The notes under the pieces: generated by a model | Seen by the model: the letters and a program-made list of their open reading frames with translations, nothing else | Database searches by the model: none | Told to the model about the DNA's origin: nothing | Made by a program: the position numbers and the translations under genes | IMG/VR virus record: IMGVR_UViG_3300021431_000096 | Location: 1 to 64,000 of that record | Origin: a virus | Taxonomy: Duplodnaviria; Caudoviricetes | Direction: 5' to 3' (one strand) | Length of the DNA: 64,000 nt | Part shown: positions 35,876 to 49,297 of the stretch, in pieces | Layout: each line of letters starts with the position of its first letter | How positions within the stretch are numbered: position 1 is the stretch's first letter

Positions 35876-37285
35876 ATGGCACAGGAATTTGACATTTTGA
35901 AAATCGGAGGCGTTCCCATCAACGCCTGCGACGTCGTGGCACGCCAGCGCATCGACGAGCTGGCAGCAGCCAGCGGCGTGACCTACTTCGGCCGCGTGTG
36001 GAACCTCCAGAACTCCACGCCCGTGGCCGACCACTACATCGGCAACCTCGCCTTCGGACAGCAGCTGCCCGAATGGCTCGGACTGGGCTGCTACATCGTG
36101 AAGAACGACCACAGCCGTAAGAAGCTGATGGCCGACAACCATTATAAGTACGAGAACGGTGCTCCCGCCAAACTGGATGGTACAGAAGGCCATTACCAGT
36201 GGGGATGGGGCAAGAAGTTCTATATCGTGGTGAAACAGCAGGGCGACGAGCTGGCGCTGATTATTGCCAAGGGCAAGATTCCCGGCGAGGTGAACTACAC
36301 CATTCCCGTGGCCTCTGAGTCTGCGGCTGGATGGGCTACGATGGAACGCAGCACTGGTAAGCTGGTAAGCTACATCAATATGGGTGCCGACTACCGTGGT
36401 GGTAACAACGACAGCAGTCGTGACGGACAGTATAACACTATGCTCGGACGCCCTGCATCTTCTATGACTACCAACGCATTCCTGACTGCCGCCCGCCTGA
36501 ATGGCGACGGATGGCTGGGTGCAAGTATGCGCTTTGACTGCGTGAAGGCCATACTCTTCTACGTCATCTTCGGTAACCTGAACGTACAGGCCGCCTATAA
36601 TGCCAATAAGGACGCCAATGGACTGTATCAGGGCGGACTTGGTACTGGTCCTACCAATGCAGGCGGTTGGTGGGGAGCCAACTGGGACTATTATCCCGTG
36701 TTCCCACTGAGTGCAGGTATAGAGTTGGGCGACCGTTGTGGCGTGTTCAACTATGTAGTGAAGGACGGTGAGGACAATACGTTGCAGACCATGCAGGGTA
36801 CCTGTTTCTTCGGATTGAAGAACGGCATGGGCGGTATCATGTGGAAGATGATGACCGACGAGTTGCTGCAGTGTAATGAGGATAAGAGTCAGACGCACCT
36901 GATAGCCGAGAAGATTTGTAAGGTGGACGGCAATTACACCTACAGCATCGGCAACAGCGCTACGGGCTTTAAGGTTGGTGGTACCACACCTGCTTATGAG
37001 AGTGCTGCATGGAACAGTATCAGCCGCGTGCTCTTCAAGAATCTTGAGCTGCTGCCTATCGGTGTCGGTCAGACCAATCGCTTCAGCGATGATTATTACA
37101 ATCCTGCTATAACCTCCGGGTTCCGTCTTGTGCTCCGTTCCGGCTCTCTGGACCATGGTGGTCGGTGTGGCCTTTCGTTTGTCCTTGGTTACATTGGTGT
37201 CGGGAATGCCTATGCGTACGGCGGGTCGTCGCTCTGCGAAGTGACCGAGGAGTGGAGCGTGGACGGAGAGTACGTCGAGGTCTAA
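35876..37285 (+). CDS. DGR target protein (probable receptor-binding protein with C-terminal variable region)
   Basis: Carries the VR at 37114-37234; the G.R...R.G.......CG........G.......G..LC pattern fits C-type-lectin/FGE-like DGR targets. Confidence 0.9.
   Translation: MAQEFDILKIGGVPINACDVVARQRIDELAAASGVTYFGRVWNLQNSTPVADHYIGNLAFGQQLPEWLGLGCYIVKNDHSRKKLMADNHYKYENGAPAKLDGTEGHYQWGWGKKFYIVVKQQGDELALIIAKGKIPGEVNYTIPVASESAAGWATMERSTGKLVSYINMGADYRGGNNDSSRDGQYNTMLGRPASSMTTNAFLTAARLNGDGWLGASMRFDCVKAILFYVIFGNLNVQAAYNANKDANGLYQGGLGTGPTNAGGWWGANWDYYPVFPLSAGIELGDRCGVFNYVVKDGEDNTLQTMQGTCFFGLKNGMGGIMWKMMTDELLQCNEDKSQTHLIAEKICKVDGNYTYSIGNSATGFKVGGTTPAYESAAWNSISRVLFKNLELLPIGVGQTNRFSDDYYNPAITSGFRLVLRSGSLDHGGRCGLSFVLGYIGVGNAYAYGGSSLCEVTEEWSVDGEYVEV
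37114..37234 (+). repeat. DGR variable repeat (VR)
   Basis: 121-bp match to TR with 15 mismatches, all at TR adenines. Confidence 0.97.
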
Positions 37286-37687: not shown

Positions 37688-39220
37688 ATGAAGACGATAA
37701 AACGACTATCGGACGACATAGCGACTGTCAATAATTTCATCGAAGCGCATGAGAACTACACAGAGACAAAGCCTTATAGGACTGATATCCGTGAGTTTGA
37801 AAGCAACTTCACTGCAAACATCAGAACACTTCTTAGAGCATATAACCTTGGCAACTGGGTGCCACCAGAATACGAAGAGCGTACTATCGTAGAACATAAC
37901 AAGCTACGGAAACTTGGTGTTTATCCTGCGGCAGAGCACAATATAGAATGGGCAGCACTGAATTATCTGGAGAAACCGTTGACCGATACATACATCCGCA
38001 ACTCTTGCGCCTGCGTCAGAGGACGAGGACAGAATGACTTTATTGATATCATATCCCGCGCCATGCGCAACAGTTATGATGACACACGCTACGGCGTGCA
38101 ACTGGATGCGCACCACTACTTTCAACTGATAGATCACAATATCATAGAGTGTGTGCTTGAAAGGAAGATCAAGGACGAAAGGTTGATGCGGTTACTGCAC
38201 AATATCCTGAGTTCTTTCATGAACGGATTGGTGCTCGGTACTAAACTCAGCCAGATAGAGGCGAACTTCCAACTGTCGCCCTTTGACCACGGAGCACAAT
38301 CATTATGGGGTGTTCGCAACGATGTGGAGAAGATGTGTTACTGGCGCCGAAGATATGTTGACTGGTGCATAGCAACCGTGCGAACCAAGGAACAGGCCGA
38401 GGAGCTCGCCAAGGGCGTGCAGTACCTGAACGCGAAGTTCGACAGCCTTGTGGACAAGGGCGTGTTCTATGCCAGGTTTGCCGACAACATCATCATGCTC
38501 TCTGGAGACAAGGCATTCTTGCATATCGTCACCGAAATTGCCATTATGGTGCTGGCACGGGACTATCACTATCAAACTAACAAGTCGTGGAATGTCCGAC
38601 CTGTTGAACCCGATGGCATAGACATCTGCGGTTATGTATTACATCATTATTATAGAAAAGTAAGAAAACGCATTAAACAAGATTTATGGAGAGAGGTCAT
38701 ACAGCTTCGCAAAAAAGGGAAATCGCCAGAGGAAATACGCCTGGCATGTGCCTCGCGTATTGGGTGGCTAACGCATGGCGACTGTAGGAACCTTCTCAGG
38801 AAAATGAATGTCAATATGGAAGAACGGCTTGGCGATAAGATTAAGAAAAAGAGAATAATGATTCCTTTTGAAGGTATGACGAAAGAACAGCGACGTTCTA
38901 TCGAGGACTTTCTTTGTTATACTGACGAAGACGAAAATGATAAGATGATTCTCCTTTTGGAATATACTGTCGGCAAGTCGATATTTCCAGGAAAAGAAAA
39001 CCGTGCTGCGTTAAGGTTCAAAACTTCAAACGGAATCATTCGTCATCCCGATGGTACCACAGAGCATCAGTGGAGTGAAGAGGAACTTTACGCATGGACT
39101 GGTTCACAAATACTGATAGAACAGATGTTGCAGGAGTTCTCACCAGAAGATTTGCCTGCGCCGACGGCCATTCACGAAAACACGAACAAATACGGAAAGA
39201 AATATTATAAGTTCACTTAA
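37688..39220 (+). CDS. DGR reverse transcriptase with a C-terminal extension
   Basis: SCACVRGRG, QLDAHHYFQLIDH, GLVLGTKLSQ..AN, ARFADN, GIDICGY; adjacent to TR/VR. Confidence 0.93.
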   Translation: MKTIKRLSDDIATVNNFIEAHENYTETKPYRTDIREFESNFTANIRTLLRAYNLGNWVPPEYEERTIVEHNKLRKLGVYPAAEHNIEWAALNYLEKPLTDTYIRNSCACVRGRGQNDFIDIISRAMRNSYDDTRYGVQLDAHHYFQLIDHNIIECVLERKIKDERLMRLLHNILSSFMNGLVLGTKLSQIEANFQLSPFDHGAQSLWGVRNDVEKMCYWRRRYVDWCIATVRTKEQAEELAKGVQYLNAKFDSLVDKGVFYARFADNIIMLSGDKAFLHIVTEIAIMVLARDYHYQTNKSWNVRPVEPDGIDICGYVLHHYYRKVRKRIKQDLWREVIQLRKKGKSPEEIRLACASRIGWLTHGDCRNLLRKMNVNMEERLGDKIKKKRIMIPFEGMTKEQRRSIEDFLCYTDEDENDKMILLLEYTVGKSIFPGKENRAALRFKTSNGIIRHPDGTTEHQWSEEELYAWTGSQILIEQMLQEFSPEDLPAPTAIHENTNKYGKKYYKFT

Positions 39221-39936: not shown

Positions 39937-40440
39937 ATGAGCGTTTCGATAATGCTTTCTATCCTCCTGGTGGTGTCCTTTGTGGGCACCACCATTTGGA
40001 AAGAGAAAGAACTGCCAGATAGCATCAGCGCAATGGTGTGGGTGCTTCCCGAAGGCGGCTTGCGGTGGCTGTGGTCAATATGGCTCGTTGCCGTGTCCAT
40101 CCTTACCTTTGCTCCTGCCATCGGCATCCTCGACGCAAGGGGTCTTGGTGTGTTCGGATTTCTGCCTATGGTATGCCTCGGCTTTGTTGCAGTGTGGCCT
40201 CTCTTCGACCAGGAACACGTCAAATGGCACTACGTGATGGCAGTGGTCGGCGGCATCCTCTCGCAGGTCACGGTGGCTTTTATCAATCCGTGGTGGCTAT
40301 CCGTCTGGCTCTTGATGGCTGTAGCGCTATGGAAGCCCATCAGAAGCAAGGCTGTGATGATATCGGAGTGTCTATGCTATGTGGCGATGGTTGGCGCACA
40401 AACAAGCACAGCTCTTTTCGTCCACACGCAAAATCCATAG
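39937..40440 (+). CDS. Multi-pass membrane protein
   Basis: LPDSISA motif and about five hydrophobic segments. Confidence 0.7.
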   Translation: MSVSIMLSILLVVSFVGTTIWKEKELPDSISAMVWVLPEGGLRWLWSIWLVAVSILTFAPAIGILDARGLGVFGFLPMVCLGFVAVWPLFDQEHVKWHYVMAVVGGILSQVTVAFINPWWLSVWLLMAVALWKPIRSKAVMISECLCYVAMVGAQTSTALFVHTQNP

Positions 40441-40460
40441 CAATAAATCTTTTTTTCATT

Positions 40461-40720
40461 ATGACTAACGGCGAAGAACAGAAATCACGGAGTTACTTTT
40501 ACCGCTTCGAGGCCAACACGCGGATATCAAGCCCGACAAGTTCGGTGGCGCACAGGTGGCCACGCCCGACATGCTGACCGCCGATATGTTGACGTGGGGC
40601 ATCAAGGCCGAGATAGACCGCAAGTTCTCCAAGGTTTTCGCTATGAACAAGCAGACCGCGCGTCCAGGACGGCACCTCATCCGAAGGCGGTGATAATGGC
40701 GACAACGGCGGCTTCGCTAA
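40461..40720 (+). pseudogene. Frameshifted remnant, possibly of a fourth HU-like gene
   Basis: Pieces in different frames read DIKPDKFGGAQVATPDMLTADMLTWGIKAEIDRKFSKVFAMNKQ and QDGTSSEGGDNGDNGG (acidic Gly tail like the HU-like genes). Confidence 0.35.
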
Positions 40721-41102
40721 ATTCAGCGGCACGCCCTCTCCGGCAAAGCGCCACCGTCTGGATGAATGTTTACAATGGTCCCAGACGCGTTGGAACGGCA
40801 AAGGTAGGGAATGTTTTCGGAACGGCAAGCGTTCGTTAGCATTATTTAAGGAAAAGCACAAGGGGAGTCCCCGCCGTCCGAGATGGATGGCAGGGATGAC
40901 TTTGTGGTGTTCTGGCAGCTACCTGACGACGACCGTCAGCTCCGATCCGTCCGTGAAGATGATGTCCTGATTGTGATACAGAGGTGGTTGCCGTTATTTA
41001 GTCCCAAACGAAAAAAGCACATATTGTAAATTTGCTGATAGAACGCCGCCCAGATGCGGTTAACAGCGCCAGCCGCAGACAGCGGCTTACTCTCGCGAAG
41101 GG

Positions 41103-41255
41103 AAAAGAAAAAAGTTCAGGACTTGCGGGCGAACCTGCTACAATTCTAACGGACATGAACCGTCTGTACCCGCAAGGAACCTGAACTAAAAGGTCTCCTT
41201 TCTGATACGACGGTTCAATATTTTATTCCGTAAGAATTGTAGCGATGCAAAATTA
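41103..41255 (-). ncRNA. Putative structured antisense RNA with a -7 box and terminator
   Basis: TAATTTTG on the - strand at 41248-41255; stems 41137-41147/41233-41243, 41156-41164/41209-41217 and 41114-41129/41169-41186, followed by a T-run. Confidence 0.5.
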
Positions 41256-41559
41256 TAACAAAAATTACAATCGAGAGAATATCCATCACATCAGTGGGTA
41301 CAATTTAGTGAAACTTAACGCTTATAAACTGAAATTAATGCAGGCTCTCGGCATCAGGGTGGAGGACGTTAAAAACCTTGCTCCTTACGAGGCTTATCAC
41401 AACATGATGGGCATGAATATCGACCGAAAGCGCATGTATGCTTTCATCCGGCAGGAGTACGGCATCAGCAGGACGAATATGCAGAATATAGCGAAGCGTT
41501 TTGAGCAGACGGTTGACAATGATGCCGGTGATTTCGGGGAGGAAATCGGAGACGGATAG
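41245..41559 (+). CDS. Hypothetical protein, possible helix-turn-helix regulator
   Basis: L.....GIRVEDVK.L..Y..Y..M...RQEYGISRTNMQNIAKRF pattern; start uncertain. Confidence 0.5.
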   Translation: MQNYNKNYNRENIHHISGYNLVKLNAYKLKLMQALGIRVEDVKNLAPYEAYHNMMGMNIDRKRMYAFIRQEYGISRTNMQNIAKRFEQTVDNDAGDFGEEIGDG

Positions 41560-41814
41560 TTAAGGTTTGTCAATAGAGTGACGCGGGTTTTGGCTGACGG
41601 TAGCCAAAACAGCGGTTTTCGGGCGGTATGGCTGTGGCTGTATCGCTCGAAAGCCTTTTATACAGGCGGTTTCTGCGTAGCCAAGAACGGTGGCTGCGCA
41701 TTAACGCTTTTCTTTGGCAGGTGTGGCTTCTTTTTCCGAAATTTGCTGTCGGAAACGAGGAAACTCAAATCCACTACAATTCACTTTATTTATTAACACA
41801 AAAACTTTAAGACT

Positions 41815-42384
41815 ATGGCATTAGAGATGAATGATTTGATGATGCTCCGTGGGATGGACTCCAAGGAAGGTCTGTCGCCCTATGAGCAGGTGAAGCTCGA
41901 CCACATGACTGCAAAGAATCACACTGGCGGTGTGGCAGTAGCAGGACTGGTGACTGGCGTGGCTGGTGTTACCATCGCCGCAACGGCATGGCTGTTCGGT
42001 GGTATGTACTCCAATGCGAAAGCGAAGGAGGCCAAGGAGACGGCTATTGCCGCCAAGGAGATTGCAACCCTGCAGAACGGCGCTACACAGCGTCAGCTCG
42101 ATCAGTTGACCAACCTGTTTGCTGCTGAGCGTCAGGAGCGCATCGCTGGCGACGTGACGCTGAACCAGACCATCACGGACACCGTGAGCGGTCAGCAGGC
42201 CAGCACCCTTACTGCCCAGCAGCAGGCAGAACTCATGGCCTCGCAAGCTACGCAGCAGGTGATGACGAAGACCTATGAGGACTTCGTGACTGGTCGCGCT
42301 TCGCTGAACCCGACTCCCGTCAGCCTGTACTCGGCTCCACAGCCTTGTGCTTGTCCTGCCAGCGGTTGCGGTTGCGGCGCGTAA
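41815..42384 (+). CDS. Membrane-anchored coiled-coil protein with C-terminal CxC...GCGCG
   Basis: GGVAVAGLVTGVAGVTIAATAWLFGG hydrophobic segment; Gln-rich coil; PQPCACPASGCGCGA. Confidence 0.75.
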   Translation: MALEMNDLMMLRGMDSKEGLSPYEQVKLDHMTAKNHTGGVAVAGLVTGVAGVTIAATAWLFGGMYSNAKAKEAKETAIAAKEIATLQNGATQRQLDQLTNLFAAERQERIAGDVTLNQTITDTVSGQQASTLTAQQQAELMASQATQQVMTKTYEDFVTGRASLNPTPVSLYSAPQPCACPASGCGCGA

Positions 42385-42468
42385 GCGATTTGAGGGGCTG
42401 TGACTGTCCCGTATGCTGCGGCACTGCCGCAGCCTCTCATTTCCAAATTCAATTCACGGCAATATGAT

Positions 42469-42834
42469 ATGTTTGGATATGGTAAACGAAAACGACGTAT
42501 GCAGATGGTACAACAGGGATTAAGGGCGACGAGCAAGAGCAGTCTGAAGCTGCAATGCCTCTTTTGTGCAAAGGGCGACCTGAAGGAGGCAAAGGAACTC
42601 TACGACTTCTTTGCGAGCGACATGCCCGACCTTCCGGACTACGACCCTGTGCCGCCGACTTGGCAGCAGAACACGGCACAGACCATCAACGGCATCATGG
42701 ACTGGGTGAAAGAGAACCAGGGGGCGTTGGCACAGGCTTACGACTTCATAGCAGGCATCGTCAGAAAGCGGGGCATACCGCCAACGGCTGCGCCCGAGCC
42801 GCCAGCCGCACCGCTGCCACCCATCAATCAGTAA
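42469..42834 (+). CDS. Hypothetical protein
   Basis: ATG in GATATG context; Pro-rich tail. Confidence 0.7.
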   Translation: MFGYGKRKRRMQMVQQGLRATSKSSLKLQCLFCAKGDLKEAKELYDFFASDMPDLPDYDPVPPTWQQNTAQTINGIMDWVKENQGALAQAYDFIAGIVRKRGIPPTAAPEPPAAPLPPINQ

Positions 42835-42852
42835 CAACTAATTCACGGCATT

Positions 42853-43074
42853 ATGAATGAGAAGAAAGAAATCAAGGTGTTCCCCATCACGTTCGAGGTG
42901 TATGCCTACGATGCGCAGGAGGTGGAGGAACTGCGCAGTGCGATAGTGGACTTTATCGCCACCAACGCCCAGCGGAAAGTGCCTATACTGGCTGGCAAGG
43001 CCGCACAGGGCATCAGGGCATGGGATAAGAACCCGTTCGTCAGGAACAGGATTATCCAACACTTCCAAGTTTAG
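42853..43074 (+). CDS. Hypothetical protein
   Basis: 73-aa co-directional ORF. Confidence 0.7.
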   Translation: MNEKKEIKVFPITFEVYAYDAQEVEELRSAIVDFIATNAQRKVPILAGKAAQGIRAWDKNPFVRNRIIQHFQV

Positions 43075-43121
43075 AAAGAATCAGAAAGTTTTGCAAGAAT
43101 TATCAAAAAATAGCAAGGATT

Positions 43122-43457
43122 ATGGATCAGACAAATCAGAATCAGAATCAGCAGAGCGGGCAGTTCAAGTGTCCAGGCAACTGTCTGCAGTGCCTGCCCG
43201 CACAGCGTCAGTATTGTGCCTCGCAGCACGCCTACTCGAACATGAAGGTGCTCGACAAAATCATGGAGACGCTACTCGGTATGAAGAACCAGATGGACGC
43301 GATGCAAGGCACGGTCGCGGAGCTCTCGGCGAAGATCGAGGCCATCCAGAACGGCGAGGCTGCCGTGTTCGACCCCAATGGCGAGGGCGAGCTCTTCCCG
43401 AAGGAGTTTGCCGTCGCGGAGCCCGCAACCGACGCACCTGCAGAGGCGGCGAAATAA
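43122..43457 (+). CDS. Cys-motif plus coiled-coil protein
   Basis: CPGNCLQC...QRQYC followed by a heptad region. Confidence 0.7.
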   Translation: MDQTNQNQNQQSGQFKCPGNCLQCLPAQRQYCASQHAYSNMKVLDKIMETLLGMKNQMDAMQGTVAELSAKIEAIQNGEAAVFDPNGEGELFPKEFAVAEPATDAPAEAAK

Positions 43458-43475
43458 GCCCCTGAAAATGCCGAT

Positions 43476-43548
43476 GGACTTTTACTACCAACAAAAGTCC
43501 ACTTTTACTACCAATAAAAGTCCACTTACGCTCCAACAAAAGTCCACC
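43476..43548 (+). repeat. About 3.5 x 22-23-bp repeats (CCAA[C/T]AAAAGTCCAC)
   Basis: AAAAGTCC at 43493, 43516 and 43538. Confidence 0.8.
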
Positions 43549-43627
43549 TGCACAAAAATACAGCGCAAGACGGGTAGCGGCGCACCAAAAGGCTCCCAAG
43601 ATAATCAACACAAAAAACTAAAGTATT

Positions 43628-44107
43628 ATGGCAAACTGTAATTGTAATTGTCGTAACGGACAGGATGCACTCGACTTCCTGACTTCCGTACCAGGCGGCA
43701 CCGCTGCCAACGCAACGTATCAACTGGGACTGACCCACTACACTTGTGGAAACCGCAAGATGCTCGTGGCTGACCCGACGCATCCCGTCATCGCACAGCT
43801 GACGGCTACGCCCGTCGGTACGCCCATCGACCTCGGCAACGACACCTTCTGTCAGGAGTGCCAGATTGCGGGCACCGTCACCTACAAGCCCTGTAACTCC
43901 TGCTCGCCGCAGACCGAGTATGTCAGCCAGCGCGTCTGCCTGCCGTGCTCGTCGGCTGTGTCGCCCACGCTCACCATCGGCACCGTGGCTGCTTCGCCGA
44001 AGCCTATCACGTACTACGCAAACAATGGCTGCGGATGCTGCCAGGGCACTTACCCATGCACCAACCGCATCGCCATCACCACGTCGATTAACGTGACAAC
44101 GGCATGA
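43628..44107 (+). CDS. Cys-rich hypothetical protein
   Basis: ANCNCNC, THYTCG, FCQEC, PCNSC, VCLPC, GCGCC. Confidence 0.75.
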   Translation: MANCNCNCRNGQDALDFLTSVPGGTAANATYQLGLTHYTCGNRKMLVADPTHPVIAQLTATPVGTPIDLGNDTFCQECQIAGTVTYKPCNSCSPQTEYVSQRVCLPCSSAVSPTLTIGTVAASPKPITYYANNGCGCCQGTYPCTNRIAITTSINVTTA

Positions 44108-44484
44108 ACTGGCCCGATGTACTGATGATTGTCTTCTCCGCGACAGCCGCCAACCACCTCGGTCTGGCGGCTGCCGCAGAGAGCGTCGTCCGTCACCGCC
44201 TGCCAGTCCTGAACTGTCCCAAGTGTGCGGCATTCTGGAGTGTGATAGTGTACGGTGTGGCGGTAGCAAATTCTTCACTCTTCACTCTTCACTCTTCACT
44301 CCAAATCCTCGCCGCCGCCTTCCTCTCCGCATGGTCAGCCGTCTGGCTCGACCTCTTAATGGGAATCATTGACCAATTATATATAAAGGTATATGACACG
44401 TTTTATCCAACAACAGATACCACCGACACCGACGCGCTCGATACCGCAGACCCCGTGTCCGATGTGTCCGACGGCCAAGGTTGA
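44104..44484 (+). CDS. Membrane protein with CPKC motif
   Basis: ANHLGL...LNCPKC..FW; in-frame TTCACTC repeat (NSSLFTLHSSL). Confidence 0.7.
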   Translation: MNWPDVLMIVFSATAANHLGLAAAAESVVRHRLPVLNCPKCAAFWSVIVYGVAVANSSLFTLHSSLQILAAAFLSAWSAVWLDLLMGIIDQLYIKVYDTFYPTTDTTDTDALDTADPVSDVSDGQG

Positions 44485-44666
44485 GTCTGTCGCTGTGCCA
44501 CAGCGACCGCAGCCCAAATCCGAAACAATATCGGAAAAGGCACCGAAACCGATGCCTAAACGACAAAATAAGAAATAAAAATCGCCGATTTCCGCTTGTT
44601 TCCGCAGAAATCCTGCAAATAAGCAGGTTTAAGTCGGCTTAAAGTCTAATTTAAACAGAAAATAAG

Positions 44667-45167
44667 ATGAACTCAACAGAATTGAAAGACCGCTACATGG
44701 GTCTTTATGACTACATGGCGCAGAGCCGCGACCCGAAGAATATGAAAGCCTTCGGTTGCGTGATGACAGAGATGATGGACTACCTCGTGGCCAACAAGCC
44801 CGACGTAGCCGAAGAGATGATAGACAAACTGGAGGCTATCAAATGGCGTCAGTACCTCACGCCAAAAGAGGCCGAGAAGATTGTCGCCGGTATGGAACCG
44901 AAAGCACCGTGGAGTCGCGAGGTGTGGAAGAACGCTATGGAGTCGTTCGGACTGCCACTGGAGGAGATGCCAGCCTACAACCGCTGTGCGCTCTGGGTGG
45001 AGATGAACAAGATTTACTCCGACTTCGGCGAAGAGATAGCCGCCTTGCTCGGCAAACCGCTGTCAGCATCCGACAAGGATATCATCTCAGCCTGCTACAA
45101 GATGGCGCTGAAGAACCTGAAGGATAAGGACGGCGTGTACGACATCCGCAAGTATTTCCTCTGGTAG
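44667..45167 (+). CDS. Conserved helical hypothetical protein
   Basis: YLT..EA..IV..M.P...WS...W.......YN..ALWV.MN..YSD...A...LKD.D....IR.YF. Confidence 0.75.
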   Translation: MNSTELKDRYMGLYDYMAQSRDPKNMKAFGCVMTEMMDYLVANKPDVAEEMIDKLEAIKWRQYLTPKEAEKIVAGMEPKAPWSREVWKNAMESFGLPLEEMPAYNRCALWVEMNKIYSDFGEEIAALLGKPLSASDKDIISACYKMALKNLKDKDGVYDIRKYFLW

Positions 45168-45209
45168 GTCAAAGTAGGTCAGAGAAGGTCAAAGTAGGTC
45201 AAGTTTTGT

Positions 45210-45497
45210 ATGGACTATGCCGCCGCTGCTGATGCACTCATGCGCCGCAAACTCTTAGAGCAGATGTACGACCGCATGACCGACGAAGAGAAGCGACTCT
45301 TCGCCATGATGACAATGCAGAACAAGAGCAGCGACGAGATCCTGCAGGCTATTCAGAAGAACCAGCAACACTTGCAGCACCTCGTGGAGCACGCCGACCG
45401 CGACCAGTGGTACAAAGCCTTCGGCTCCGACGTAGCCGCCAACGTGCTCACCACCTCTGCCTTCTGGCTCCTCGGCAAGCTCTTCGCCAAGCGATAA
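45210..45497 (+). CDS. Hypothetical protein
   Basis: FGSDVAANV C-terminal amphipathic segment. Confidence 0.7.
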   Translation: MDYAAAADALMRRKLLEQMYDRMTDEEKRLFAMMTMQNKSSDEILQAIQKNQQHLQHLVEHADRDQWYKAFGSDVAANVLTTSAFWLLGKLFAKR

Positions 45498-45528
45498 AAC
45501 TATCCATTCGATATCGCCGTGAATGGTC

Positions 45529-45570
45529 GCGGGCGCATCGGTTTCACAGCCCTTGCGCCCGCCTTTTTTG
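45529..45570 (+). terminator. Intrinsic terminator
   Basis: GCGGGCGCA...TGCGCCCGC followed by CTTTTTTG. Confidence 0.7.
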
Positions 45571-45656
45571 CCTGCAAATGCGCCCTTTCCGCAGCCTTAT
45601 ATCCCAAAAAGTTCACCGCCCGTCTATATCTTTGCAGAAAAGAAATCAGACAAGAC

Positions 45657-46022
45657 ATGACAACATTTATTAATGACATCCAACCCATCCTGTTGACCGC
45701 CCTCGTTGGCGTACTCATCGCCTATGCTCGCTACGTGAACACCCTGAAAACCCGCGTGGCAGTGTTAGAGCGAACCATCGAAGATTTGCTGAAGACCATC
45801 GACAGCATGCAGAAGCGGCTCGACTCGCACTCGAAGAAACAGGACGAGATTCACGACACGCTCAACGACGTGAAGAGCGACATGAAGGACATGAAGGTGG
45901 AAATCGTGAAGGAGATGGGACAGATGGCCTCGAACCTGAGCGGACTGGCCTCCGACCTGAAAGGACTCAACAACCTGCTCGCAATCTCTGACTACGGCAT
46001 CCGTGCCAACAAACCGCAATAA
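45657..46022 (+). CDS. N-terminal TM plus coiled-coil protein (holin/lysis-associated candidate)
   Basis: PILLTALVGVLIAYA then heptads; downstream of the ATCCC-N21-TATCTTTG promoter. Confidence 0.55.
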   Translation: MTTFINDIQPILLTALVGVLIAYARYVNTLKTRVAVLERTIEDLLKTIDSMQKRLDSHSKKQDEIHDTLNDVKSDMKDMKVEIVKEMGQMASNLSGLASDLKGLNNLLAISDYGIRANKPQ

Positions 46023-46025
46023 AAT

Positions 46026-46466
46026 ATGATTCATCACGACCGATATCCCAATCACTCCGTGCCTCCGGCTCGCCACAAAGTCGGAAATCGCCGCACTTGG
46101 GCTGACCGCTTCGGGCTAAACGTCTTGCGCCAGCGGTGGTCAAACGCCATGCCAAAGTTCTTCAAGCGTGTATGCTGGCTGTCGGCTCTCGTCGGCGGAA
46201 CCGCCCTCGCCGTCAATACCGCAATAACATCTGGCGGCGGAACGACGCACGAATGGTGGAACGACATCTATCCATATTTATTGGGTGTTCCTGCTGGAGC
46301 CGCTTTCGTGGCCAAGTTCACTCAGAACTATGATCGAGACGGCAAGCCCATCAAAAAGGAACTTCCAGAGGGCGACAATCCGTCAGCCGTAAACTACTCC
46401 GATATTGAGACCGTTTCGCCTGCTGAGCATGAGAAAATCGACATCGACCCGTACAATGGCGATTGA
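46026..46466 (+). CDS. Holin-like two-TM protein
   Basis: RW...MPKFFKRV.W....V.G.A......YL.G..AGAAFVAKFT pattern. Confidence 0.5.
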   Translation: MIHHDRYPNHSVPPARHKVGNRRTWADRFGLNVLRQRWSNAMPKFFKRVCWLSALVGGTALAVNTAITSGGGTTHEWWNDIYPYLLGVPAGAAFVAKFTQNYDRDGKPIKKELPEGDNPSAVNYSDIETVSPAEHEKIDIDPYNGD

Positions 46467-47548: not shown

Positions 47549-49297
47549 ATGAACGGACTATTTGAAATACTCAGCAACAAGGAGTGGATGATTCAGCAGG
47601 AGTTCCTGCACAGCATCCTGCCTACGCTGCAGTACAACATCACAAACCATGCCTCTCTCGGCATCGAGCGCGAGAAGAAGTCGCCAATGGCCATCGGTCA
47701 GCATGGACAGGACTTCATTCGTGAGTATCAGGTGACACAGGACGGAAAGACGCACGGTCGTTATGGCTGGCGCGGCGACAGCCTGTCAGAGTTGAATGAA
47801 CCTTTCGTCAATGTTATGCCTATTGACGGACCTATCACCCGCAATGGCGGCGCTTGCAGCTACGGGTCGATGGAAATCCGCGACTGGATGATGGAGGCTG
47901 CTAACAATCCTGCTTGTCAGGGTCACGTATTGAACATCAACACCCCCGGCGGCAGCGCTTGGGCAAAGAACGACTTCCAGCAGGGTATCGACTATGCTCA
48001 CGCCCGTGGTCAGCGCGTCATTGCCTTCATCGACGGACTTTGCGCTTCGGCTGGCATGTATCTCGCTTCGCTCTGCGACGAGGTGTATGTAATGAACCCG
48101 AAAGACCAGTTGGGCTGCGTCGGTGTAATGGCTGCTTTCTGCACCATGAAGAACGGAGAAAAGTATCAGTGGGGCGAGACCTACCACGAATACTACGCTA
48201 CCAAGAGTATCAACAAGAATAAGGAAATGCGCGACATTGCCGAGAACGACGACGCCAAGCTGCTCATTGAAGAGCTCGACAAGCTGGAGGCTGAGTTCCG
48301 TGCCGACATGAAGGCTGCTTTCCCCAATGCCAAGGACGAGCACCTGGACGGCAAGGTATTCGACGCTAAAGATGTGATGGGCATCCTGTGCGACGGTGAG
48401 ATGATGCTCGGCGACGTGATCTGCCGCGTGTTCAACCTCGCCAACGGCACCGAACAACCCATCGCCCGCACCGCAGGCCGAAAGGTCGCTAAGCGTCAGC
48501 AGACGGCAGGTCGCGGCACGTCGGCTGGTCAGCAGGCATCCGTCGGCAACTGTGCATCCGCATCCGTCCGCATGACCGCCGCGCAGGCTAAGGAAAACAT
48601 TTTATCACCAACAAATAACAGTATCAACATGAAAGAGAATTATCCCGCAGTGTTTGCGCTTCTCGGAGTCGAGGAGATGCAACTTTCAGAGGAGGGCACT
48701 TTCTTCAACAAGGATCTGCTCGCCACGCTGAACAGCGCCATTGAGGCGAAGAACAAGGAGACGGCTGACGCCAAGGCTCTGGCCGAGCAGCTGACCTCAG
48801 AGAAGAACGAGCTGACCGCTCAGATTGAGACGCTGAACGCCGACCACCAGAAGGCCATCGACGACCTGAAGGCTGAGCACGCCACGGCCATCGAGGAGAA
48901 GGACAACCAGATTTCTGCCCTGGAGCAGGAGAAGGCCGACCTCACCGCCGCCGCCACGACGAAGGACGAGGAAATCGCCACGCTGAAGACCGACGCAGAG
49001 GGCAAGGCTTCACAGATTGAGCAGCTGACCACCGACCTGAACGGTGCGAAGGAGAGTCTGACCACCGCCGAGGGCACGATTGCCGAGCGCGACCAGACCA
49101 TCAGCGACCTGAACGCCCAGATTGCCGAACTCCAGAACAACCCCGGCGCAGAGCCCGCAGCAGGCGCAGCCCCGAAGAACAACGGCGGCGGTGCGGAAGC
49201 CCCAGGCGTAGCCGTCAACCAGTATGTCTATGACCCCTCACTCTCCTACGAGAAGAACATGGAGGCCAAGGAAAAGTGGGAGGCCGAGCACAAGTAA
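47549..49297 (+). CDS. S49 (SppA/ClpP-like) prohead protease with C-terminal coiled-coil scaffold
   Basis: IDGPITR.G, L.INTPGG, IDGLCASAGMYLASLCD, GCVGV; long acidic coiled-coil tail; precedes the capsid gene. Confidence 0.88.
   Translation: MNGLFEILSNKEWMIQQEFLHSILPTLQYNITNHASLGIEREKKSPMAIGQHGQDFIREYQVTQDGKTHGRYGWRGDSLSELNEPFVNVMPIDGPITRNGGACSYGSMEIRDWMMEAANNPACQGHVLNINTPGGSAWAKNDFQQGIDYAHARGQRVIAFIDGLCASAGMYLASLCDEVYVMNPKDQLGCVGVMAAFCTMKNGEKYQWGETYHEYYATKSINKNKEMRDIAENDDAKLLIEELDKLEAEFRADMKAAFPNAKDEHLDGKVFDAKDVMGILCDGEMMLGDVICRVFNLANGTEQPIARTAGRKVAKRQQTAGRGTSAGQQASVGNCASASVRMTAAQAKENILSPTNNSINMKENYPAVFALLGVEEMQLSEEGTFFNKDLLATLNSAIEAKNKETADAKALAEQLTSEKNELTAQIETLNADHQKAIDDLKAEHATAIEEKDNQISALEQEKADLTAAATTKDEEIATLKTDAEGKASQIEQLTTDLNGAKESLTTAEGTIAERDQTISDLNAQIAELQNNPGAEPAAGAAPKNNGGGAEAPGVAVNQYVYDPSLSYEKNMEAKEKWEAEHK

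Follow-up and report, generated by a model that had tools for sequence, protein, structure and literature searches.

What a phage makes with nine small genes that are kept in one fixed order, none of which can be traced to a known function, is the question raised by a locus in the virus record IMGVR_UViG_3300021431_000096 (Duplodnaviria; Caudoviricetes). The window analysed here is the first 64 kb (64,000 nucleotides) of this 93,359-bp single-contig record (G000), which is ~95% complete and belongs to a tailed phage, with tape measure and terminase genes present in the genome. The locus is a block of ten small genes, consisting of the regulator gene g0 and the nine co-directional genes g1 to g9 in window 41815-45497. 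This cassette is outside the known kinds, since no known family or fold accounts for it, and is to be understood as a conserved cassette and not as a demonstrated new mechanism. The reading preferred here, to which a probability of roughly 40% is given, is that its products would form, in the infected cell, a membrane-anchored, cysteine (Cys)-stapled multi-protein assembly around an oligomeric g5. A preliminary description of the window had seen in the same genes a coherent system of Cys-rich, coiled-coil and membrane proteins outside known functions, a view that is now well supported by deep conservation of gene order, movement as a unit, a promoter and terminators of the operon's own and an upstream helix-turn-helix (HTH) gene. 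All the open reading frames (ORFs) that it had named as a co-directional operon are present, the count of eight or nine genes settling at nine, and the terminator-like fold with which it had closed the operon is confirmed (Table 1).

Conservation and movement of the cassette

Relatives of the block were collected by a pattern scan with g5, which returned 13 IMG/VR contigs, and by a scan of species genomes, which added 4 further contigs from metagenome-assembled genomes (MAGs). When all window proteins were searched by tblastn, g1 to g9 were found in the same order in all 17 rumen contigs at 27-98% identity, with g3, g4 or g9 undetected in a few of the loci (g1, g2 and g7 were detected in 17, g3 in 15 and g9 in 13). 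Such co-occurrence in fixed order is far above chance, and the genes grouped by the preliminary description therefore do travel together. The ORF at 44393-44578, about which that description had been doubtful, is real, being kept as g7 in 17/17 related loci with 48-87% identity. Median identity to the window across the 17 loci is 75% for g8, 69% for g5 and 68% for g7, followed by 53% for both g1 and g9 and by 47%, 45%, 43% and 42% for g6, g2, g4 and g3, respectively; g5, g7 and g8 thus exceed in conservation the head protease, whose median is 50%. Identity ranges from 43 to 86% in g1 and from 60 to 97% in g5. One search gave 168 clusters for the g5 family, and an exhaustive g5 profile search found just 48 clusters among 1.84 billion representatives, so that the family is narrow; g8 is represented by 1593 clusters.

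The cassette also occurs in more distant phages. A 72-kb low-G+C phage contig (L020) has the whole operon in order, including g3 and g9, and in a further contig (L021) a g5-like gene and a gene of DUF7841, the family of g8, are directly adjacent. An HTH gene and g1-g8 are also present in the cultured Bacteroides phage BS162P1 (OP172706.1, host B. salyersiae) as its genes 00094-00101, BS162P1_00095 being the g1 homologue (hhalign probability 99.8%). Its g5-like protein aligns weakly with g5 (23%, E 9e-4), occupies the same slot and has motifs in common with it, with fewer Cys at other positions. The g7 counterpart of BS162P1, MAKYIRPKPAKGIVPRPIKCPNCK, is encoded by an unannotated 24-codon gene overlapping the end of BS162P1_00100 (L063:6918-6992; OP172706.1 ~67776-67850). 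BLAST of the block DNA, g5 and g1 against 50,697 phage records returned no match, and of the queries used in this search g8 alone matched BS162P1.

The block stays together as it changes its place with respect to the head genes. It stands upstream of the head protease gene, with both on one strand, in the window, L002, L007 and L008; the protease gene is inverted and faces it in L001, L009-L013 and L019; and in L017 and L018 the protease comes first and the block after it. In L020 the genes before the block are DnaB and methylase genes, and in BS162P1 they are DpdA/QueE-like. The operon of L020 is interrupted between g1 and g2 by an inserted HNH/NUMOD homing endonuclease gene (L020:6373-7158), the flanking genes being intact. 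The phage contig L015 ends with a gene (L015:10987-13038; genome 90987-93038) for a 683-aa TnpB/IS605 OrfB-like protein, which combines OrfB_IS605, a Cas12f-like TNB domain and an HTH with weak AAA_5 similarity in its extra N-terminal ~250 residues.

Four relatives of the block sit on contigs that binning assigned to rumen Prevotellaceae or Bacteroidales MAGs, which points to Bacteroidota as the host of the phage; the gut and rumen hosts of these phages are strict anaerobes. Because no integrase was found in four complete related genomes, two of which have direct terminal repeats, and because g5 occurs in just 4 of ~185,000 species genomes, every time on a phage-sized MAG contig, the cassette-bearing phages look non-integrating and are probably virulent. 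On the same grounds of missing integrases and phage-sized contigs, lysogenic conversion was dropped as an explanation of the cassette.

The Cys-rich protein g5 and its possible partners

The most Cys-rich protein of the cassette is g5, in which eight Cys (C6, C40, C75, C89, C92, C104, C137 and C138) are conserved in an alignment of 30 sequences (A1). Its AlphaFold2 (AF2) model, with a predicted local distance difference test (pLDDT) score of 90.9, is an all-beta protein with the form of a compact beta-sandwich of 150-160 aa. A Foldseek search of this model against PDB and BFVD yielded nothing at E <= 0.001, and the best hit in a wide VIA-align search, at Z 5.4 (68 aligned residues, root mean square deviation 3.0), was to generic sandwiches. 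No Pfam match was obtained at E <= 0.1, and the nearest named clusters in the ESM Atlas (CryBP1, DUF8305 and SipL) score 0.84-0.86, below the trust mark.

When three copies of g5 were modelled together, the ipSAE score was 0.86 (0.87, 0.84 and 0.86 in the single runs) as against 0.00 for the best control; this mark is attained by 20 of the 30 proteins whose structures were solved as pairs, compared with 1 of the 23 solved as single chains, counts which were obtained with two copies and hold roughly for the three used here. The runs have at least 84% of their contacts in common, with a partner pLDDT of at least 85. The predicted interface is head-to-tail, residues 11-31, 40, 67-75 and 98-106 of one copy meeting residues 4-6, 16-34, 116-121, 128-130, 139 and 151-155 of the next, and strand 67-73 is placed beside the C-terminal strand 151-155. 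In the model, C40, C75 and C104 belong to one of the two faces, and C6 together with the residue next to C137/C138 to the other. A contact of this type would fit a closed trimer as well as an open polymer, and the modelling supports self-assembly of g5. Enrichment of conserved residues at the interface is slight (19/47 vs 35/112, own count) and was not used as an argument.

Several of the other proteins combine Cys motifs with membrane segments or coiled coils. In the membrane protein g1, a conserved N-terminal tail leads into a glycine-zipper transmembrane (TM) segment and a coiled region, and the C-terminus carries an invariant PCxCP..CxC (alignment A3). In g4, a Gln-rich N-terminus and an invariant CX3CX2CX7C are followed by a coiled coil and then by an acidic tail with G[DEN]LF (alignment A5). 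The CX3CX2C spacing in g4 is that of radical SAM enzymes, a candidate which was rejected since g4 has 111 aa, is mostly coiled coil and has no Pfam match, the core of such an enzyme needing ~200 aa or more. The conserved tail of g2 ends in a short motif (alignment A6; Table 1), and the likely start of the gene is the ATG at 42469 and not that at 42400, in agreement with the start in relatives. In g6, the CxxC lies in a basic loop after TM1, at the start of TM2, and is kept in all loci including L020, L022 and BS162P1; the positive-inside rule would place this loop in the cytoplasm. The +1-frame overlap of g7 with the end of g6 is kept as well, in L020, L022 and BS162P1 in the form of a short ~23-aa basic CPxC peptide. 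There is a single CPxC in g7, and no locus read lacks the CxxC motif of g6 or that of g7. The overlap suggests coupled synthesis of the two proteins; g7 as a frameshift extension of g6 was dropped as a possibility, g7 having its own ATG in every locus.

The preliminary description had found no enzyme motifs, and this is borne out by searches with Pfam, PHROGs, NCBIfam and PADLOC, which gave nothing meaningful for the nine proteins beyond DUF7841 in g8, so that none of the nine maps to a known, unrelated function. With PADLOC-DB 2.0, no match was obtained for g0-g8, and g9 had weak coil-type matches of 14 bits. With profiles of g5, g8 and g1, PDB sequences gave no match below E 0.05, and direct reading of the nine sequences revealed no N-terminal signal peptide or lipobox. 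Known holins were considered for g1, g6 and g9 and rejected, there being no match to a Pfam or PHROG holin profile and no adjoining endolysin found by the profiles used. The pair g6/g7 was likewise rejected as Rz/Rz1 spanins, g7 overlapping g6 and not g1 and starting with MTRFIQQQIPP, without a hydrophobic signal or lipobox.

As the one protein with a family, g8 is a true member of Pfam PF25223 (DUF7841; 43 bits against a cut-off of 25.2, E 6.2e-11), and a six-frame search of the genome finds DUF7841 at the same site. The family is without a described function, no paper on it was found in the literature, and its members also occur alone in other mobile elements. The AF2 model of g8 (pLDDT 87.7) has seven helices and no convincing neighbour in Foldseek and VIA searches, the best Z of 5.4 covering residues 1-45 only; similarity to Erv2p/ALR was rejected as noise (probability 0.03; g8 is without CxxC). 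No usable match came from the ESM Atlas, and longer, fused forms of DUF7841 were looked for without success, a negative of little weight. Elsewhere, DUF7841 forms a cluster with a PF05105 holin and DUF5675 in one Bacteroidota genome (L061:7665-9215, G415:C10), and a second DUF7841 gene lies in an unrelated small integrase-bearing element. The cluster has a large RHS-like gene on one side and housekeeping genes on the other, the frame of its DUF5675 gene is apparently broken, and a pattern scan gave no IMG/VR relative of its DUF7841 protein.

Transcription signals and neighbouring genes

Two kinds of promoter meet at the locus. The phage-type class, GTCCCA-N18-20-TAnnTTTG, has 12 exact sites on both strands of the 93-kb genome, and its members precede the head protease gene, the 52483 gene, the tape measure gene and g0. 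In these promoters the GTCCCA box stands in place of the usual Bacteroidota -33 TTTG element, which suggests that a phage-encoded factor redirects the host polymerase to them. The operon itself starts from a promoter of another type, TTTG-N21-GAAATTTG, matching the host sigma-A pattern of Bacteroidota, and in nearly all loci the ATG of g1 is preceded, at a distance of 55-95 nt, by a -7 box (TAnnTTTG).

Between the two promoters lies g0. In 14/18 loci, a gene of 75-100 aa with a C-terminal HTH (..YG[IV][SC].R.VY.I..RL) is found 120-180 nt upstream of g1, and g0 is likely a dedicated regulator that would control the operon. A small C-terminal-HTH gene just upstream of a separately terminated operon, whose promoter is unlike the main phage class, is an arrangement shared with the Mor/C late operons of phage Mu. 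The g0 protein of the window has no match to Pfam Mor (PF08765), and the homologues in L011 and L013 reach this profile only below threshold (14-15 bits against a cut-off of 24.9, E 0.02-0.05). A 10-bp inverted repeat that precedes the -33 element may serve as an operator or form a second hairpin, and analogous dyads, GGGTCA-N4-5-TGAACC, are found in L002, L011, L012 and L019. The 5' leader of the operon (41746-41814; same region in L001-L019) is conserved though the proteins are just 45-55% identical; it contains a hairpin of the GGATATCC-GAAA-GGATTTCC type, followed by the A-rich TTCACTTTATTTATTAACAACACAAAAAC, and AACACAAAAAC is conserved with the hairpin. The leader may be a stability or regulatory element; a search of 40400-46100 against Rfam gave no match.

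Directly downstream of the operon in the window, g10-g12 are regarded as lying outside the cassette because g12 stays with the protease in relatives without the block and g10-g11 do likewise in G001. The product of g10 (45654-46022) has a TM segment and a coil, with weak PHROG matches to an Rz-like spanin and a holin, and that of g11 (~46149-46466) has two TM segments. Both genes (45627-46466) have their own TAtcTTTG box and, in G001, travel with g12 and the head protease and not with the Cys-rich operon; g10 and g11 are candidate lysis proteins. On the upstream side, ~800 bases at 40441-41244, between a membrane-protein gene (39937-40440) and g0, hold no convincing ORF.

Table 1. Features of the locus and its surroundings (window coordinates unless marked as genome; DGR, diversity-generating retroelement)
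Feature	Coordinates	Strand	Remarks
Tail-type DGR target gene	35876-37285
DGR reverse transcriptase	37688-39220		diversity-generating retroelement
Phage-type promoter of g0	41001-41034	+	GTCCCA, 20 nt, TAAATTTG
g0	41245-41559	+	small HTH protein, 104 aa; PHROG 17790
Terminator-like hairpin between g0 and g1	41614-41655	+	19 pairs, then TTTTATAC
10-bp inverted repeat	41674-41700	+	just upstream of -33 element; read from sequence
Operon promoter	41713-41745	+	Bacteroidota sigma-A type; TTTG, 21 nt, GAAATTTG; without GTCCCA box
g1	41815-42384	+	bitopic membrane protein, TM and coil, ends CACPASGCGCGA
g2	42469-42834	+	helical, Pro-rich tail ending LPPIN[EQ]
g3	42853-43074	+	small, ~70 aa
g4	43122-43457	+	CPGNCLQC...C, coil, 111 aa
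g5	43628-44107	+	Cys-rich all-beta protein (predicted)
g6	44104-44484	+	three TM segments, CPKC
g7	44393-44578	+	61 aa, PCPMCP, basic tail; +1 frame over 3' end of g6
g8	44667-45167	+	all-helical DUF7841 protein
g9	45210-45497	+	helical; hydrophobic or amphipathic C-terminus
Intrinsic terminator closing the operon	45529-45570	+	9-bp G+C stem, then U run CUUUUUUG
Head protease/scaffold gene	~47549-49297
GTCCCA sites, window	7360, 29805, 41001, 47461, 52405(-), 52417
GTCCCA sites, genome	71187, 75137(-), 75160, 82145(-), 87013(-), 87034
Near variants of GTCCCA class	15249, 32247
Divergent GTCCCA promoter pairs	52385/52442, 75117/75186, 86992/87060

A proposed membrane-anchored assembly and its rivals

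How the products might work together can be outlined as follows. Made from the general phage promoter, g0 would switch the operon on, and g5 would form its head-to-tail homo-oligomer, either closed as a trimer or open as a polymer. Around it, g1, g6 and g9 would act as membrane anchors, bringing the whole complex to the cytoplasmic membrane of the host, and g2, g3, g4 and g8 as soluble adaptors, g2 and g4 carrying their conserved C-terminal short motifs on flexible tails. The all-Cys motifs would join the parts, either as common metal sites (Zn or Fe-S) or as thiol staples, with tetra-Cys sites in g1, g4 and g5 and half-site CxxC pairs in g6 and the overlapping g7. In the zinc hook of Rad50, two CxxC half-sites share one Zn, and by analogy with it, no homology being meant, the one conserved CxxC each of g6 and g7 could form an intermolecular tetra-Cys site. 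The role of such an assembly is most likely late and envelope-related, in membrane integrity, lysis timing or the exclusion of other phages, a statement that is held with less confidence than the assembly itself. As examples, the preliminary description had proposed a metal-bound or disulfide-crosslinked coat or membrane assembly, or else a host-envelope modifier, which is a possible reading. The membrane assembly is compatible with the predicted self-association of g5, with conserved Cys at the interface, and with a cytoplasmic CxxC in g6; a virion coat is less likely, given that the operon has no GTCCCA-type promoter and in two other phages has DNA-metabolism genes around it.

For the way in which g5 may work, spore envelopes offer the best analogy. 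Clostridium CsxA and CsxC, which have the SPOCS/DUF3794 fold, are Cys-rich self-assembling spore-envelope proteins (bioRxiv 10.64898/2026.09.03.749163). The marks of this group are a barrel of two three-stranded sheets and a strand-swapped trimer. Like g5, SPOCS proteins are small, Cys-rich beta proteins that are made in the cytoplasm without a signal peptide, and in both cases strand-sharing oligomers with cysteines at the subunit contacts are predicted. Membership of g5 in this family is, however, not supported: the SPOCS/DUF3794 profile PF12673 has no match at E <= 10 anywhere in the genome, the DUF3794 cluster scores no more than 0.84 to g5 in the ESM Atlas, which is under the noise mark, neither a SPOCS nor a CotE chain is listed among the neighbours of the g5 model in the PDB and BFVD searches, and the host of the cassette is a non-sporulating diderm. 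A fuller version of the assembly, tentative at best, would have g5 form a Cys- or metal-stapled lattice or ring, anchored in the inner membrane by g1, g6/g7 and g9 and made under its own activator, that remodels or guards the envelope of the infected cell, as a counterpart of independent origin, in a Gram-negative host, to the Cys-rich spore-coat lattices.

Several points weigh against the assembly around g5. The cassette is fixed in a large subclade and accessory across the wider clade. Neither g5 nor DUF7841 is present in G012 (95% complete, terminase 48% identical), and the two were not found in three closer relatives (G001-G003), which are 61-76% complete, so that the basic lytic cycle does not depend on the cassette. 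DUF7841 is found without g5 as well, and the parts of the cassette are therefore not strictly interdependent. The ipSAE score expresses the confidence of a model and is not a measurement, and Cys clusters by themselves are no proof of metal binding. Finally, flank charge gives an ambiguous topology for g1, whose C-terminal Cys cluster may lie in the periplasm and would then be unable to meet g5.

Four other explanations were weighed, of which the first, unlikely as it is, is a module for lysis or its timing in a diderm Bacteroidota host. On this account g6 would be the three-TM holin-like protein, g1 a bitopic counterpart of T4 holin T or an i-spanin, g9 an antiholin-like membrane binder, the soluble Cys proteins regulators and g8 a lysis accessory. 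The outlines agree to some extent with known lysis systems (T4 T with RI/RIII; lambda S with Rz/Rz1): like T4 holin T and i-spanins, g1 has one TM segment between a short N-terminal tail and a C-terminal domain of ~130 aa in which Cys are conserved, g6 has the size and the three TM segments of a class I holin, and a small +1-frame gene is embedded at the end of a membrane-protein gene, as lambda Rz1 is. Yet none of g1-g9 has a holin, spanin or endolysin hidden Markov model (HMM) match, g7 is without signal peptide or lipobox, and the cassette differs from such systems in having five further soluble proteins, of which three bear Cys motifs, and in a conservation, above all of g5 and g8, that is unusually high for lysis proteins. 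The presence of three membrane proteins and of a dedicated late-type regulator would suit lysis, and so would the result that no endolysin was found in the 95%-complete genome with the seven profiles Amidase_2, Phage_lysozyme, Peptidase_M15_4, SLT, GH25, GH108 and DUF5675; cassette-less relatives, however, must lyse otherwise, and in BS162P1 and L020 the operon stands among DNA-metabolism genes. DUF5675 is a candidate C82-like lysin domain (bioRxiv 10.64898/2026.04.11.717860), and DUF7841 directly follows it and the PF05105 holin in one Bacteroidota genome, a link that comes from a single locus, the second DUF7841 gene lying in the unrelated integrase-bearing element; nor does the g8 model have a lysozyme-like or peptidase-like neighbour.

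A membrane complex for superinfection exclusion, defence or counter-defence, which blocks incoming DNA or neutralises a host system, is a weaker candidate. Its self-contained, movable and patchy cassette, with a host-type promoter of its own and membrane components, is located at module borders, where accessory genes gather, but PADLOC finds nothing meaningful, and a fixed order of nine genes with 60-97% identity of g5 over 17 loci is unlike fast-evolving arms-race genes; protection of the host in the manner of a prophage is unlikely since the phages appear non-integrating. Somewhat more doubtful still is an optional part of the virion, for instance a decoration trimer or a fibre topped by a Cys-linked cap, whose hydrophobic segments would be buried helices or belong to proteins that insert into the membrane after ejection. 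The strong conservation, the position between tail/DGR genes and head genes in the window and several relatives, and the compact beta-sandwich of g5, a predicted oligomer of a size and form common among decoration proteins, are in keeping with this; the operon is nevertheless outside the GTCCCA promoter class that precedes the head protease, 52483 and tape measure genes and is far from structural genes in L020 and BS162P1, g6 is a typical polytopic membrane protein, and no virion-protein neighbour appeared in the BFVD and PDB searches. Improbable, and the least favoured of the four, is a redox or metal-handling module, in which Fe-S or metal-binding all-Cys motifs would serve a membrane-bound electron-transfer or metal-sequestering unit. 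Invariant four-Cys motifs in three proteins (CX3CX2CX7C of g4, PCxCP..CxC of g1 and the clusters of g5), their membrane partners and the strictly anaerobic rumen and gut hosts speak for it; no cofactor-binding or oxidoreductase family or fold was detected, however, g4 is far too small for a radical SAM enzyme, and the distant g5 of BS162P1 has fewer Cys in different positions.

Whether or not the membrane-anchored assembly around g5 is the right reading, the cassette bears on a large group of viruses, as Bacteroidota phages dominate gut and rumen viromes and most of their genes are without assigned function. It is under strong purifying selection, has its own regulation and has hundreds to thousands of relatives in public metagenomes. 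Because the cultured phage BS162P1 carries the cassette genes, including the small gene missing from its GenBank annotation, it offers an experimental handle by which the cassette is directly testable. If the products prove to form a Cys-stapled membrane assembly, this would be a new kind of phage-made cell structure; if they prove to control lysis, a long-standing gap for Bacteroidota phages would be filled.

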